A stretch of DNA of 22,499 nucleotides, filler included, from an uncultured archaeon (GCA_964442255.1; 6 parts of 6 records of this genome joined end to end with filler, not necessarily neighbours in it); one strand, 5' to 3'. Counted from the whole stretch's first letter, positions 24 through 22,499 are shown. The notes: a model not told the origin generated them from the sequence alone. Numbers and translations are program-made.

Positions 24-86
24 GGCAATGATGAGGTTAACACCTGCCGAGCGCAAGCGATGACGATTTAACCCATCCCTGAGCCC
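24..86 (+). ncRNA. Box C/D sRNA (archaeal 2'-O-methylation guide), compact type
   Basis: Box C ATGATGA 28-34, 12-nt guide 35-46, D' CCGA 47-50, GC-GCAA-GC mini-hairpin, C' CGATGA 58-63, 15-nt guide 64-78, D CTGA 79-82. GGC/GCC terminal stem and a T-tract at 89-100. Confidence 0.8.
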
Positions 87-123: not shown

Positions 124-180
124 ATATGACATCCTTCCACGGCTAAAGCCGTGGGTTTCCCTGAATTCGTTGAGGATGTC
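124..180. repeat. Palindromic IS200/IS605-end-like element, family A, copy 1
   Basis: GACATCCT...AGGATGTC terminal inverted repeat enclosing the hairpin CCACGGC-TAAA-GCCGTGG. Near-identical copy at 4366-4421. Confidence 0.8.
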
Positions 181-196
181 TTTTTCCGTCAACGGA

Positions 197-248
197 AAGA
201 AATCCGCAAACCGCTGCCTAAAGGCAGCGGATTTCTTTGGGTTGTTAA
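197..248. repeat. Palindromic REP/IS605-end-like element, family B, copy 1
   Basis: AAGAAATCCGC...GCGGATTTCTT with inner CCGCTGCC-TAAA-GGCAGCGG. 50/52 identical to 22432-22483. Confidence 0.85.
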
Positions 249-4365: not shown

Positions 4366-4421
4366 ATATGACATCCTTCCACGGCTAAAGCAATGGGTTT
4401 CCCTGAATTCGTTGAGGATGT
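4366..4421. repeat. Palindromic IS200/IS605-end-like element, family A, copy 2 (at contig end)
   Basis: Matches 124-179 except CG>AA in the 3' arm of the inner hairpin. Confidence 0.8.
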
Positions 4422-4521: not shown

Positions 4522-4651
4522 GCGCCCTCAGTCCGCCCATCTGTCTTCATCGCCGTCTGCTCACGGCGGCAGAGCACCCTGTTTTCAACAGGACTGGCTC
4601 GCTTTCGCTCGCATTAAGCCGGCTCGGTGTCATCGTCAGTTCATCATCGGG
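4522..4651 (-). ncRNA. Extended box C/D sRNA, copy 1 (predicted 16S rRNA guide, including Cm1402)
   Basis: Minus strand: C ATGATGA (4647-4641), guide ACTGACGATGACA, D' CCGA (4627-4624), 71-nt structured insert, C' CGATGA (4552-4547), guide AGACAGATGGGCGGA, D CTGA (4531-4528). CCC/GGG terminal stem and a TATA-like TTTTTAA about 25 nt upstream. Confidence 0.78.
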
Positions 4652-8687: not shown

Positions 8688-8742
8688 TGCTCTGCCGCCG
8701 TGAGCAGACGGCGATGAAGACAGATGGGCGGACTGAGGGCGC
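8688..8742 (+). ncRNA. 3' part (C', D guide, D box) of the extended C/D sRNA
   Basis: Exact 55-nt reverse complement of 4522-4576. Probably an assembly overlap with copy 1. Confidence 0.75.
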
Positions 8743-8766
8743 ATTTATTTTTATCGCAACAGCAGT

Positions 8767-9711
8767 TTACTGGATTTTCCGGATTATTTCAAAATCAGTG
8801 CAGAGAACAAAGTCGCCGATTTGCAGATTTGGAATTGAGTTCTTTATTTCAGCGACAGAATGGTTTCTGGCCACTTGGACCCTTGCCCCGTTTGGAAAAA
8901 TTTTCTTGATTTTGCCTTTGTAGGTTTGGTTCACCTGGCGGATTGTTTCGGATAATGCCGCATTGAAAGAGTTTGGCTGGACGCCGAGCAATGTTTCTGC
9001 TTCCTTTATTTCGGCTTGTGAAATTCCTTTCAGGCTTTGGAGTATCTTGTCTTTCCTCAAAACTTCAAACATTTTTGGCGGAGCATTTTCCTCTCTGGCA
9101 AAAAGCAATATTGCGGCGATGTCAGCGATATCCTTTTTCCGCTTGTCTTCTTTCTGCCTTCCCGGCAAGGATTTTGTTTTCATTGCCAGCAAAACCCAGG
9201 GCTTTGGAAGCCAGAGCTTTTTGTTGAATTCATCCAGCTCCGTGCGATTTTCCTTTTTTGCAAAAACATATTCGAGCAGGATTTCGTCAAGAAGCAGTTT
9301 GCGGTTTTTCTCGTCAAGCGATTTCGGAATATAATCAACCAGGAGGTCAACAAACATTTTGTGGATGTCAAAAAGAGGCTTTGCCTGCGCTTCTGCTTTT
9401 GAGAGTTCTTTGCCGGTTTCAAAGTCGAGCTCTTTTACCATTCTACCGCCAACTTCCCTAAAGCCTTCATCTTCAAGCTTTTTCATTGAATGGATAAACG
9501 CGGATTTGGAAAAATCCTTTCCCTCTTCCAAATGAAATCCCAAATCAATATCCCTTGAGCCCAGATAATCCCTGCCAGTGTTAGCCTTGTAATTCTTGTT
9601 GACTGCCAGGAAAATTGCCCAGCCGCCAAGCAGGCAAATCGGCTCTTCCAAAACAGAAACCACTTTTTGCAGATACTCATAAGACCGCGTGGTTTCCCTT
9701 CCGTCGTACAT
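8767..9711 (-). CDS. Nucleotidyltransferase, AbiEii/type IV toxin-like
   Basis: LLGGWAI...SRDIDL, VDLL and LAMK...R...KRKKDIAD motifs. Coupled to the upstream gene by a TAATG overlap. Confidence 0.75.
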   Translation of the reverse strand: MYDGRETTRSYEYLQKVVSVLEEPICLLGGWAIFLAVNKNYKANTGRDYLGSRDIDLGFHLEEGKDFSKSAFIHSMKKLEDEGFREVGGRMVKELDFETGKELSKAEAQAKPLFDIHKMFVDLLVDYIPKSLDEKNRKLLLDEILLEYVFAKKENRTELDEFNKKLWLPKPWVLLAMKTKSLPGRQKEDKRKKDIADIAAILLFAREENAPPKMFEVLRKDKILQSLKGISQAEIKEAETLLGVQPNSFNAALSETIRQVNQTYKGKIKKIFPNGARVQVARNHSVAEIKNSIPNLQIGDFVLCTDFEIIRKIQ

Positions 9712-10388
9712 TATTCTTTCCCCTTCAAGGTCTTCACGAGCTTTTCCAAAAGCATGTCAGCAGCCTCGGCAGCAGGCCCGCCTTCGGCATACAAATCAGA
9801 AATCAATTGGGGAAGATTGACAAGCCAGGGACCTTCACTCTCTTTTTTGTGTTTGCCCTTCTTCGCATCAAAAAATTTCTCGCCCGCTATTTTGCCATGT
9901 ATTCGTTTCTTGTTGAAAAGCTCATCATTTAAAGAAACAATAATCCGAACATTCCCGCCGCCATAGGTCCCGATTGCAGTTAATTGCTTGTGCCAATCTT
10001 CCAAGTCTTCCTTTTTTATGTAAGCCTCTGTCCGATGGCTGAACAAGTGCTTTTGCAGGATGTTCTCGGCAATATAAGTCGTGAAAGCATATTCCTTGTT
10101 GGATTTTTTGAACAGGTCAATCAATTTGTCCACGTTGTCAAGCGAATAAATAGAGTAGCTTCTCGAAATTGTCTTCTTGGGCCGGAGATTATGGAACAAC
10201 TCAAACAAACCCTTGGGATTAACCACTTTGCGGTCTTTTACAAGCTCTTTCTTTTCAAGCTTCTTAATTACATTAATTGCCCATGTGGGCGTACTTCCGG
10301 CATCTTTAGCAAGCCTGTATTTGCTCTCCAGCTTGTATTCCGGGTCAAGAAGGAGCGTAAGCATCCTCTTCATCTTGGTTCTAGCCAT
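9711..10388 (-). CDS. HTH-containing AbiEi/type IV antitoxin-like regulator
   Basis: N-terminal wHTH (KYRLAKDAGSTPTWAINVIKKLEKKELV), YAFT, GNV and VNLPQLISDLY..GG...EAA patterns. Upstream of the NTase. Confidence 0.72.
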   Translation of the reverse strand: MARTKMKRMLTLLLDPEYKLESKYRLAKDAGSTPTWAINVIKKLEKKELVKDRKVVNPKGLFELFHNLRPKKTISRSYSIYSLDNVDKLIDLFKKSNKEYAFTTYIAENILQKHLFSHRTEAYIKKEDLEDWHKQLTAIGTYGGGNVRIIVSLNDELFNKKRIHGKIAGEKFFDAKKGKHKKESEGPWLVNLPQLISDLYAEGGPAAEAADMLLEKLVKTLKGKE

Positions 10389-10399
10389 AAAAAAACCCA

Positions 10400-10515
10400 A
10401 TATATAACTAACTCAAACTATTTATAAATAGAAGTTATATATAACTAACTCAAACTATTTATAAATAGAAGTTATATATAACCAATTAAAGATCTTTATA
10501 AATCTCAGTTATATA
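10400..10515. repeat. 37-bp tandem array (2 exact units plus 1 degenerate) of palindromes; putative operator/promoter
   Basis: Unit ATATATAACTAACTCAAACTATTTATAAATAGAAGTT at 10400 and 10437, degenerate at 10474. Contains the perfect palindromes CTATTTATAAATAG and AGTTATATATAACT. Confidence 0.9.
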
Positions 10516-10740
10516 CCTGCCAAACAGATAAATTATAACGGTTCCGGTCAGGCACAAACCAGCCTTTGGCTTGCGACCGAATTTTAACCACTTTGCACAT
10601 AAAGAGCTTCTGTATTGGCAAGTTTTGCCCAAGGATTGTAGTAACATCTATAACTCGTATGAATGTTCAACTGACTTAATCCAAGGCGTTAACCCCACAG
10701 AAACGTTATATTTAAATATTTTGTGGGGTTAACTGTTTGT

Positions 10741-11682
10741 ATGGTTTATTTCTCCGAGAAAAAGATTAAAGGGAAAAAATACCTTTACGCAATCCACTCG
10801 GTCAGGCTGCAGAACGGAAAAATCGCCAAGCTAAGCAGGCGGGTTGAAAAAAAGTCGGTTACGCCCGAGCTCCGGAAGTACTTCTCCGAAAAGGAAGCGG
10901 AGGCCAGGGAAAAGAATGCGCTTGAGGTGTTTGAGGCGGACAGCGTTTTTTCAGGGGAACAACTGCTTAAGCTGGAGAAAACAAGGCAGGAATTCAAGAA
11001 AATCCTGAAAAGACTTTCAAAAAAACAGCTGCAGGACTTGTTTGACCGCTTCACGGTTAACTTCACTTACGAGTCAAACGCGTTGGAGGGAAACTCCCTT
11101 ACACTGAAAGATGTTGCAATTGTGATGTTTGAAAACCGCATGATAAAGGACAGGGATTTACGGGAAATTTATGAGACAAGAAACTCCAGGAAAGTAGTTG
11201 ACCTGATTCTGAAAAAGAAGTTCAGGGCAACGGAAAAGGACGCCATCAAAATGCATAAAATGCTTGTAAAAGACATGGACATAGCAACAGGCTACAAAAA
11301 GGTGCCGAATTATTTGCTTGGAAGCAATCTTGAAACAACTCCGCCTGAAGAAATCGGAAAGGAAATGGGAAAACTCTTTAAATGGTTTAAAAAAGAGAAA
11401 AAAATGCATCCCCTGCAGAAGGCGGCGCATTTCCATGGCCGGTTTGAAAAAATCCACCCATTTGAGGACGGAAACGGCAGGGTTGGAAGGTTTCTGATAA
11501 ATGTTTCCTTAATAACCGAGGGCTATGCGCCGCTTATAGTGAGAAAAAGCCAGCGGACAGCCTACCTGAAATGCCTGCAGGACTTTGACAACTCCTACAC
11601 GCAAAACCTTGAAAGATTCCTTTTGGACAAGTACAAGAAAACCTTCGAAAAATTCTTCCAAACCTACATGAAATACATTTAG
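10741..11682 (+). CDS. Fic-family protein with an N-terminal inhibitory motif (class II-like)
   Basis: Canonical HPFEDGNGRVGR motif, preceded by SNALEGN, which fits (S/T)xxxE(G/N). Confidence 0.93.
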   Translation: MVYFSEKKIKGKKYLYAIHSVRLQNGKIAKLSRRVEKKSVTPELRKYFSEKEAEAREKNALEVFEADSVFSGEQLLKLEKTRQEFKKILKRLSKKQLQDLFDRFTVNFTYESNALEGNSLTLKDVAIVMFENRMIKDRDLREIYETRNSRKVVDLILKKKFRATEKDAIKMHKMLVKDMDIATGYKKVPNYLLGSNLETTPPEEIGKEMGKLFKWFKKEKKMHPLQKAAHFHGRFEKIHPFEDGNGRVGRFLINVSLITEGYAPLIVRKSQRTAYLKCLQDFDNSYTQNLERFLLDKYKKTFEKFFQTYMKYI

Positions 11683-11749
11683 GAGCGGTTGCAAAAAAAT
11701 AGGCACAGCTTTCCCAAGTGCCAGATAGCCGGAACGACACAACATCATC

Positions 11750-12350
11750 TTAATCAGCTTTCCTTCCTTTTAATTTAGTTGTTTTTTTAAGATATGCAAT
11801 ACCGCCGTGCTTTTTTGAAGCCCGCCTTCTAGATTCAATTAACGCCTGATGAACATCCGGCGCATATCTTACTGCATACGATTTTTCTTCCCTAGTCTGT
11901 TTTATGGCGTCCTTCAATCTCTTTCGTGTCAATTCACCCCCATAAAAGCAATTGATATCCGGCTTCCAAAGGGAAATTACCTGTCTCGTGAATGATAGTT
12001 CCCTAACTAAGTTGCTGGTGTCAAGTGGAAGCCAATTAATCTGCAAACCAACTCGTTTCTCAAGCGCTTCAGCAATACTTTCATAGAATTTCTTGGGCCT
12101 GTCGCCAACATACCTCCCCCCTATGCGCGCGTTCATCAACCATTATAAGAACATCAACGTCTTTATGCAAAATATCAGGAACAGTTCCAAAAACCAAAAC
12201 CCCCTTCAAAGAAGGGTCTTTCGCCATTATTGGGTCAACGACTTCTTTTATGCCTTCTAAAACAGGTTCAAAATGAGGCCGGTCACTCCTCAGTCTTCTG
12301 CCCATCCGCACCCAGCTTTTTTGGAATGCTCCCAGCTTTCTCTTCCGCAT
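11750..12350 (-). pseudogene. Minimal nucleotidyltransferase (MNT)-like gene with a frameshift
   Basis: ORF 12081-12350 has GVLVFGT...KDVDVLI. ORF 11750-12139 has IAEALEKRVGLQINWLPL, resembling the MNT LE..LG..VDLV segment. Removing one G from the G6 run at 12116-12121 fuses them. Confidence 0.62.
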
Positions 12351-12530
12351 AACAGATAATTAGTTCCCTTGTTTTTAAGGCTTTGCAACCCCCCTTGCAG
12401 CAGCACCTCCATTTATAAAGACCCCAAATCCGCTTTAGGCATAATAACAGATGTCCCGATTCCATTCAAATTGTCCCGCAAATGTCCCGAAAATAATGGC
12501 ATTAAAACCTTTCCTCCAACAGTTTATAGT

Positions 12531-12610
12531 GCGGCCTTGATGAGCTGACGATGACACTGAGCCGGCTTAATGCGAGCGAAAGCGAGCCAGTCCTGTTGAA
12601 AACAGGGTGC
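12531..12610 (+). ncRNA. Extended box C/D sRNA, copy 2 (5' part, cut by the contig end)
   Basis: TGATGA 12538-12543, guide GCTGACGATGACA, D' CTGA 12557-12560. Differs from copy 1 at 2 positions and has a different upstream flank. Confidence 0.75.
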
Positions 12611-19556: not shown

Positions 19557-19663
19557 NNNNNNNNNNNNNNNNNNNNNNNNNNNNNNNNNNNNNNNNNNNN
19601 TTAATTAATTAANNNNNNNNNNNNNNNNNNNNNNNNNNNNNNNNNNNNNNNNNNNNACAGGGT

Positions 19664-19682
19664 CAGGGGCTTTCAGCCCCTG
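19664..19682. repeat. REP-like hairpin directly 3' of tRNA-Ser
   Basis: CAGGGGCT-TTC-AGCCCCTG, 3 nt from the tRNA discriminator and next to a contig end. Confidence 0.6.
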
Positions 19683-19685
19683 TCA

Positions 19686-19900
19686 CGCAGCGGGTGAGAT
19701 TCGAACTCACGCGTCCAGAGGACAACAGCTCTCTCACAAACTTTTCTCAAAAGGCTGCGGCATCAGCCGCCTGGCGTAAGCCCGCCTTTTTTGACCAAAC
19801 CTTTTGGAAAAAAGTTTGAATGCCTTAAGGCATTTTTGCTCAAGCTTTTTGGAAAAGTTTGTCTCGAGGCTGCCGCGTTTAACCACTCCGCCACCGCTGC
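19686..19900 (-). tRNA. tRNA-Ser(CGA) with a 132-nt intron (19731-19862) at position 37/38
   Basis: Acceptor GCAGCGG/CCGCTGC plus G73, anticodon arm GCAGC-CTCGAG|A-GCTGT, variable arm GTCC-TCT-GGAC, T arm GTGAG-TTCGAAT-CTCAC. BHB formed by a CUCG/UGAG helix with AG|A bulges. CCA is not encoded. Confidence 0.95.
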
Positions 19901-22426: not shown

Positions 22427-22431
22427 TTGGG

Positions 22432-22483
22432 AAGAAATCCGCAGACCGCTGCCTGAAGGCAGCGGATTTCTTTGGGTTGTTAA
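22432..22483. repeat. Palindromic element, family B, copy 2
   Basis: 50/52 identical to 197-248. Both differences lie outside the paired stems. Confidence 0.85.
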
Positions 22484-22499
22484 AAGTTTTATTCCCTGA

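Follow-up and report, generated by a model that had tools for sequence, protein, structure and literature searches.

The window analysed here is 22,499 nucleotides of DNA from an uncultured archaeon (GCA_964442255.1; genome G000, 51 contigs, 1.28 Mb), and it includes a 3.9-kb contig, C45 (window 8688-12610), whose two ends lie in direct copies of the gene for a C/D box small guide RNA (sRNA). We conclude, with a probability of about 0.7, that C45 is a chromosomally integrated island at the 3' end of this sRNA gene, in the order C44(reverse)-sRNA A-island-sRNA B-C30, C44 and C30 being two further contigs of the same genome. The island is integrase-less cargo of at least two modules, an AbiEii-like gene pair and a Fic gene accompanied by a broken open reading frame (ORF). 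In relatives, sequence comparison supports the 3' end of the sRNA as a regular docking site for mobile cassettes, as tRNA genes are. An earlier note, made from the sequence alone, had proposed that a guide-RNA gene serves here as an integration or recombination site; genome G026, three of four metagenome loci, 25 genomes with arrays, the integrases of genomes G049 and G143, and the empty site of genome G022 support this. The window joins six small contigs (C43, C44, C45, C46, C48 and C49) through N/TTAATTAATTAA spacers in order of size, so the position of C45 beside C44 has no meaning in itself.

The guide sRNA gene, its two copies and the locus around them

Copy A (4522..4651, minus strand) is a complete 130-nt long-form C/D box sRNA at the start of C44, composed in turn of a C box, D' guide, degenerate D' box (CCGA), insert of about 73 nt, C' box, D guide and D box. 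The 5' part of copy B (12531..12610, plus strand), with C box TTGATGA, D' guide, canonical D' box CTGA and insert, forms the last 80 bases of C45 and continues into the shared 3' end. The boxes, read from the sequence, have the order C, D', C', D, and both guides are complementary to rRNA: the D guide to the 16S decoding site CCGCCCATC at nine of nine positions, and the D' guide to the G000 16S at ten of ten, at position 1198. By the N+5 rule the D guide would target for methylation the C equivalent to E. coli C1402. The 16S gene of G000 (C17:1481-3155, L073) spans 1675 nt against a 1478-position model and thus carries insertions; its decoding site reads CCGCCCATCA, with an A where E. coli has G1405, and the D guide matches the A version exactly.

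The insert between the D' and C' boxes is atypical for a C/D box sRNA. The same kind of insert is found in a long-form paralogue on C33, and the sRNA of most relatives is short-form, about 65-70 nt long, with the same guides. Rfam, searched over the whole window at E<=1, returned no family for this sRNA, and its weak matches to sR1 and sR14 lie at other positions; an ARAGORN search of the window gave no tRNA. At the start of C43 (window 24-84) lies a canonical C/D box sRNA of about 61 nt, with a weak Rfam sR1 match (E 0.2), whose first guide, GGTTAACACCTG, resembles that of the insert-bearing paralogue (C33:2943-3026).

Two mismatches separate the last 73 bases of C45 from copy A (97.3% identity), G12544 for A and T12558 for C, the latter in the D' box, in agreement with the earlier description of a second copy differing by 2 nt. 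The copies diverge more around the C box, and the flank of the C box and the upstream sequence differ; from just past the D'-box difference to the gene end, 104 bases are identical. The D guide and D box at the 3' end make up a 17-nt sequence, AGATGGGCGGACTGAGG, which we term the attachment (att) core. It lies at 4526..4542 (minus strand) in copy A and at 8722..8738 (plus strand) at the left island border, and as copy B enters the shared 3' end, the island is flanked by direct core repeats. Rather than belonging to a large dispersed family unrelated to the boundaries, the core is present in G000 only in these copies.

The first 55 bases of C45 (8688..8742) are identical, 55 of 55, to window 4522-4576 on the minus strand. 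The exact overlap with C44 reported before is therefore real, but lies at the start of that contig and not at its end. A third contig, C30 (12.6 kb), opens with the same 55-mer, a point that had been missed. Many contig ends of G000 share exact end sequences, as 31-base end probes revealed, a sign of a k=55 assembly graph cut at branch points; the 55-base node common to C44 (reverse strand), C45 and C30 therefore marks a branch with two entries (C44rev and the C45 end) and two exits (the C45 start and the C30 start). The assembly graph, proposed earlier as a check, is fitted equally well by C44rev-A-C45-B-C30 and by C44rev-A-C30 with a circular C45. The two ends of C45 do join through TGC into one intact sRNA, as had been noticed.

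The sampled words of the island are present in two public runs of one study, at 0.99 and 0.64, and one of these runs may be the source sample. Public data for runs X1 and X2 consist of k=31 contigs only; in both runs these reproduce the same four-way branch around C45, and the loose ends are exactly the continuation of the C30 start and the upstream sequence of C44. In X1 the 104-nt repeat unitig has a depth of 14.7, the long island contigs 7.9 and 8.34, and the C44-side flank 7.24, ratios that imply a repeat present twice and an island present once per chromosome.

The same cassette occurs at the same sRNA elsewhere. Positions 210-1779 of C45, which hold the AbiEii-like pair and its promoter, are 79% DNA-identical to G026, a member of another GTDB family, and the identity of the cassette between GTDB families is 79-81%. 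In G026 the pair lies inside a 91-kb contig between direct copies of the sRNA, with the order, on the sRNA strand, of a truncated sRNA (broken after CAGATG in the D guide), the nucleotidyltransferase (NTase) gene and its partner, both antisense, and an intact sRNA; two 100-nt tandem units follow, each ending in GGCGGACTGAGGG. Searching metagenome contigs for the NTase recovered four loci. Three have the pair beside the sRNA core in the same relative orientation, one of them on a contig of 23.9 kb; the fourth contig, at 2 kb, is too short to include the sRNA. The pair is thus found at this sRNA in four other contiguous loci (G026 and L080-L082).

Genome G022 (97% complete, two contigs) has a single short-form sRNA between C44-like and C30-like genes, with identities of 65% and 40% to the C44 ABC transporter genes and 54% to a C30 gene. 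This gene order is that of an empty site, and it makes C44 and C30 the expected neighbours at a single sRNA locus. In 9 of 17 loci examined, two C30 genes also have homologues a few kb past the sRNA on its downstream side. The comparison with related genomes that the earlier note had recommended has yielded both of the arrangements it named, an empty site in G022 and different cargo in the arrays described below.

Cassette arrays and integrases at the sRNA in related genomes

We surveyed 196 genomes of the order for a 14-base pattern of the core, GATGGGCGRRCTGA. The pattern is present in 102 genomes, whereas its reversed control is present in 0 of the 196, so chance is not an issue. Most core-bearing genomes have a single copy (77/102); 25 have at least two, and one contig of G052 has 11, the highest number. 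On every one of the 26 multi-copy contigs all copies lie on one strand, as direct repeats. Within 25 fetched loci there are 75 core sites, of which 22 are preceded by the 5' (D') guide of the sRNA and 53 end cassettes.

Fifty-one of the non-sRNA ends are unique, and 28 of these carry the motif ..TCATCTTTC..G..AGATGGGCGGACTGAGGC, arranged as GTAAYTAA..CCTCATCTTTC-loop-AGATG followed by the core. The others, in a simple pattern sort of the 51, were 10 that close short hairpin-repeat-like units of 74-105 nt, 6 that keep a C' box, and 7 classed as other, of which four resemble the group of 28 by eye. Yet other cassettes end in a conserved element, about 95 nt long, joined to an sRNA copy without a C box. 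The CATCTT/AAGATG dyad of cassette ends may be a hairpin or a protein-binding sequence motif; by eye, one frequent variant, CCTTGGTCTT...AGGATG, shows poor pairing.

Most of the inserts are integrase-less cassettes of 0.1-2 kb in stacks of as many as 11; they carry their own TATA-like boxes and occur in both orientations. Core-bounded cargo comprises MNT-HEPN, MqsA-like pairs, RHH-PemK/MazF, HicA with a partner, Fic, AbiEii-like pairs and a GT2 glycosyltransferase, together with many unknowns. Comparison of 38 cassettes of at least 300 nt gave 17 pairs with similarity across 60% or more of the length. The GT2 cassette has 92.7% DNA identity between genomes of two families and the Fic cassette 75-86% among four families, and alike cassettes occupy different positions in their arrays.

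Three further arrangements were seen at these loci. Tandem non-coding units of 74-105 nt, each core-ended, occur at L021 6108-6322 (G026), L062 (G163), L066 (G149) and L065 (G116); similar to the long-form sRNA's three-hairpin insert, they look like a rider on the same recombination site, of the kind of a miniature inverted-repeat transposable element (MITE). Two contigs of G055 (C64 and C22; L023 and L024) have the sRNA and at least 140 nt of upstream sequence in common, beyond which they part: one continues with the conserved downstream genes, the other with a small cassette (about 590 nt), a second sRNA copy whose D' guide is changed, and a distant (23%) homologue of the 229-aa partner protein described below; this pair of contigs may represent population variation with and without cassettes. 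In L025 (G015:C15:88000-100000), three sRNA-type copies, one truncated, one long-form with altered guides and one short-form, bracket an APH-like gene and a 5.6-kb block with genes for Fic, MNT-HEPN, a methyltransferase, DsrE, ArsR and a periplasmic-binding protein.

A candidate enzyme is found at the core in a few relatives. In G049 a gene for a 414-aa tyrosine integrase starts about 55 nt past the sRNA D box, on the same strand and behind a TATA-like box. Its closest homologue in the order, from G143 (62%), has the same layout, beside an sRNA with the same D guide and another D' guide, and G146 has a C-terminal fragment of such an integrase (66%) immediately next to the core. Members of the G049 integrase family checked at <=42% identity lie directly 3' of genes for tRNA-Ser, tRNA-Cys and tRNA-Glu; to judge from these sequences and their settings, the family appears to be of the tRNA type, one of its branches having been retargeted to the sRNA. 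Scanning contigs for close relatives of the G049 integrase gave five loci including the query; tRNA-Thr lies upstream of the integrase in one of the four others, and no sRNA was seen upstream of it in these four. Genomes that hold arrays have their integrases on other contigs or about 90 kb from the array, and the extra integrases of G052, G005, G033 and G015 have no core at <=3 mismatches in 10 loci. The only PF00589 gene in the whole genome of G000 encodes a 289-aa XerA-like protein on C3.

We suggest a mechanism in which the core stays constant because it must pair with the 16S decoding site, and so offers mobile DNA a stable and widely shared target, as tRNA genes do. Circular cassettes would carry the core, preceded by the CATCTTT motif or by a decoy sRNA copy, and would recombine with the identical chromosomal core at the sRNA 3' end. 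A tyrosine integrase of the G049/G143 clade would catalyse this core-by-core recombination, acting in trans for cassettes without an integrase. Insertion would regenerate the sRNA, and the core brought in by the cassette would be the next docking point, so that cassettes stack. Two one-sided junctions, that of G026, which keeps the left part as far as CAGATG, and that of G102 contig C55, which keeps the right part from GGCGGACTGA, point to a crossover at about GATG|GGCGG. The G000 island would be such an insertion with a full sRNA copy as its right end, and would now be fixed or rarely excised.

More tentatively, and at slightly less than even odds, we propose that this DPANN order runs a gene-capture platform on an essential guide RNA. 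The D-guide/D-box end would be the primary att site; cassettes would bear either a decoy sRNA copy or a structured att some 45 nt long (GTAAYTAA-CCTCATCTTT-loop-AGATG|GGCGGACTGAGGC); a retargeted clade of tRNA-type integrases would act in trans; and stacks of toxin-antitoxin and defence genes would be exchanged between families. If the guide-RNA gene does serve as an attachment site, this would explain how genome-reduced DPANN archaea collect and exchange such genes, make the 17-nt core a simple sequence handle on the DPANN mobile gene pool in metagenomes, and supply a compact integrase/att pair for a group without genetic tools.

Several observations weigh against integration by this route. 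The weakest point of the model is that the whole or nearly whole host-type sRNA, and not just the 17-nt core, is duplicated in G000 and G026; copies in the host's own form, long in G000 and short in G026, require gene conversion or homologous recombination within the population. The position of the crossover rests on two junctions. G000 and G026 each carry no integrase other than XerA, no tyrosine recombinase lies in or beside any array examined, and a cognate integrase is found at the sRNA in only two full cases and one fragment among the 196 genomes. In X2 the repeat unitig, at 4.82, is not twice as deep as the island pieces (2.8-5.7), in a run of low coverage; the coverage check proposed earlier therefore places the island near chromosomal depth in X1, but its two-fold relation is absent from X2. 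In the k=31 contigs of X1 and X2, no read or contig links C44 to C45 or C45 to C30 across the 104-nt repeat, a length that such contigs cannot bridge, so the public data cannot separate an integrated from a circular island.

The X2 depths would also suit a free 3.9-kb circle, an excised cassette or mini-plasmid with its own copy B beside a C44-sRNA A-C30 chromosome. The graph permits this solution, the repeat unitig maps to both ends of C45, which close into an intact sRNA, and by eye the 5' end of copy B (GCGGCC) pairs better than that of copy A with the shared 3' end (GGGCGC). We nevertheless consider a circle unlikely. C45 has no replication or partition gene, which makes a stable one-copy replicon improbable, and the ratio of about 1:1 between island and chromosome flank in X1, with the repeat at double depth, would be chance for a replicon without a replication gene. 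In G026 and L080-L082, the same cassette is part of the chromosome, integrated at this sRNA. A joint that "goes back 3920" was rejected as evidence for a circle: it is the 104-nt repeat unitig, which both layouts predict.

Ordinary local duplication of the sRNA, by unequal homologous recombination or slippage, with the genes in between incidental and no site-specific recombinase involved, would account for repeats of host-type sRNA far longer than the core (about 125 nt in G000, 57 nt in G026) and for genomes with XerA only, and duplication of C/D sRNA genes is described for Pyrobaculum (PMC6009581). It would leave unexplained the 53 of 75 core sites that have no D' guide before them, the 28 of 51 unique ends that keep the core with a non-sRNA motif only, the recurrence of the same cassettes across families and array positions, the 79-81% identity of the cassette between GTDB families, and the integrases at the core in G049 and G143; we regard it as quite improbable. 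Chimeric contig ends or an artefactual second copy are suggested by the fragmentation of G000 at many short repeats and by contigs that end exactly at k-mer overlaps. Set against the two differences between copies A and B, their distinct upstream flanks, and the recovery of both flanks in the k=31 contigs of two runs, with the X1 repeat at double depth, an assembly error is very improbable. An integrated island thus remains the reading that we favour.

Genes and modules of the island

The first module holds the AbiEii-like pair. Its NTase, a divergent AbiEii-like protein of 314 aa (8767..9711, minus strand), has the Pol-beta-type motifs GGWA and GSRDIDL. It gave no Pfam match, even at E<=10; PF08843 (AbiEii) is matched by 17 of 31 of its aligned relatives, with a best E of 6.5e-7, and a precomputed match to that family exists for 3 of 120 listed homologues. 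At E<=1e-5 there are 415 homologues, mostly from DPANN archaea, and the closest are named 'Candidatus Diapherotrites archaeon' by some sources. A profile of the NTase family run against PDB sequences returned weak Sec18 matches only, which we reject as spurious.

The partner gene (9711..10400, minus strand) encodes a conserved neighbour of the NTase of about 225-229 aa, presumed to be a DNA-binding antitoxin. It has 71 homologues, several on the same contigs as NTase homologues; the 229-aa protein has no family in Pfam, PADLOC or NCBIfam and matches no AbiEi profile. Of the AbiEii/AbiEi-like pair named earlier, the AbiEii label finds support among relatives of the NTase; neither the NTase itself nor its partner has a family match. 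Upstream of the pair, in its promoter, lies a perfect 37-nt tandem repeat (10400..10473), each copy of which holds the palindrome CTATTTATAAATAG (10418-10431 and 10455-10468); on sequence grounds the palindromes are presumed to be a TATA box or an operator. The orthologous pair of G026 has a related TTTATAAATAG region.

A conserved non-coding element of about 95 nt (10573..10675, plus strand) follows, ending in a 13-base stub of the sRNA start, ATGTTCAACTGAC (10663-10675). It has 76-83% identity to elements of G132, G114 and G015, where it runs into an sRNA copy without a C box, and it probably marks an internal cassette border. The presence of this element with its sRNA stub inside C45 is what divides the island into at least two modules.

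The second module begins with a gene for a Fic-domain protein (10723..11682, plus strand), 319 aa from a GTG start, with an ATG at 10743. The Fic assignment made before is confirmed by PF02661 (E 8.9e-21; 75 bits against a cut-off of 24) and by the PADLOC profiles PDC-S04 and SoFic. Beyond it lies the broken ORF (11750..12350, minus strand), in two frames that overlap, one of 129 aa (11750-12139) and one of 89 aa (12081-12350). This had been read as an MNT-like gene, a label that finds no support, as no profile (PF01909) and no bona fide MNT protein matches it: searches of Pfam, PADLOC, NCBIfam and a 5.8-billion protein set, and BLASTP against a real MNT protein, found nothing, and the Atlas nothing relevant. 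A decayed core had been suspected by eye after the Fic gene (about 11722-11745), but at <=4 mismatches C45 has no core except at its start. A domain search found no integrase among the genes of C45, as the earlier note had said, and no replication or partition gene.

Elsewhere in the window, short dispersed repeat families lie at many contig ends of G000, for example at window 148-178, 4391-4421 and 22428-22499, and include TTTTGAAAAGTTTCTCCGCCGAAGGCGGCCC... and GAAGAAATCCGCAGACCGCTGCCTGAAGGCAGCGG; such repeats evidently break the assembly. A weak Rfam ncS025 match at window 163-239 consists of two dispersed-repeat hairpins. The start of C49 (window 19657-19720) has a hairpin followed by the reverse strand of a tRNA-like T-arm and 3' end, with an Rfam tmRNA T-arm match at E 0.15; its sequence words recur where C11 begins and at C17:24782.

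Comparison with known systems

Integration into tRNA and tmRNA genes is textbook knowledge. A C/D guide-RNA gene as a conserved att site was not found in the literature searched, as far as its text was available, a weak check given that "C/D" is unsearchable. In the accessible parts of the sources, a review of archaeal tyrosine integrases (PMC8371274) contains neither "sRNA" nor "snoRNA"; the Pyrobaculum C/D sRNA paper (PMC6009581), which describes duplications and MITE-like copies, contains none of "integrase", "integration" and "recombination"; and the paper on archaeal integrons (PMC9668308) contains none of "sRNA", "guide RNA" and "tRNA".

Like the AbiE type IV toxin-antitoxin system (PF08843), the gene pair of the first module is an operon in which a small DNA-binding-like protein is encoded beside a Pol-beta-type NTase that has GG..GSRDID motifs, and its promoter holds a repeated palindrome. 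It differs in that the G000 NTase falls below every Pfam threshold and the partner has no AbiEi match.

The arrays recall integrons and clusters of attC sites lacking integron-integrases (CALINs), archaeal integrons (PMC9668308) included, in their small cassettes that each end in a recombination site, their toxin-antitoxin-rich cargo, and the appearance of the same cassettes in different orders across genomes. In contrast to integrons, there is no IntI beside the arrays examined; the consensus of the 51 ends, ..TCATCTTTC..G..AGATGGGCGGACTGAGGC, with no attC model run, contains no R''/L''/L'/R' boxes and no GTTRRRY core; what the ends share as a core is a 17-18 nt piece of a guide RNA; and the cassettes, which are found in both orientations, carry TATA-like promoters of their own. 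With no IntI, no attC architecture and cassettes that carry their own promoters, the system is by definition not an integron.

IMEX (integrative mobile elements exploiting Xer) lack an integrase, use the host XerCD/dif system and stack in tandem at one chromosomal site. G000 and G026, which have only XerA, are similar in this respect. The site here is the end of a guide RNA and no known dif site, and in relatives a dedicated integrase clade lies at it.

The closest parallel is with archaeal integrative elements that target tRNA genes; for stacks of small, toxin-antitoxin-rich cassettes it is with integrons and CALINs. The tyrosine-integrase review lists tRNA genes, protein-coding genes and intergenic sites as targets (PMC8371274). 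Like our system, elements of tRNA genes have their att core in the 3' end of the gene for a small stable RNA, are flanked by direct repeats and regenerate the RNA gene. The integrases of G049 and G143 lie directly 3' of the core, as their distant relatives lie 3' of tRNA genes. An att-proximal integrase of the tRNA type is absent from C45, in a genome with only XerA, but present in G049 and G143 and left as a remnant in G146. The target here differs in being a C/D box methylation-guide sRNA, and the inserts in being mostly integrase-less cassettes of 0.1-2 kb that stack up to 11 deep.

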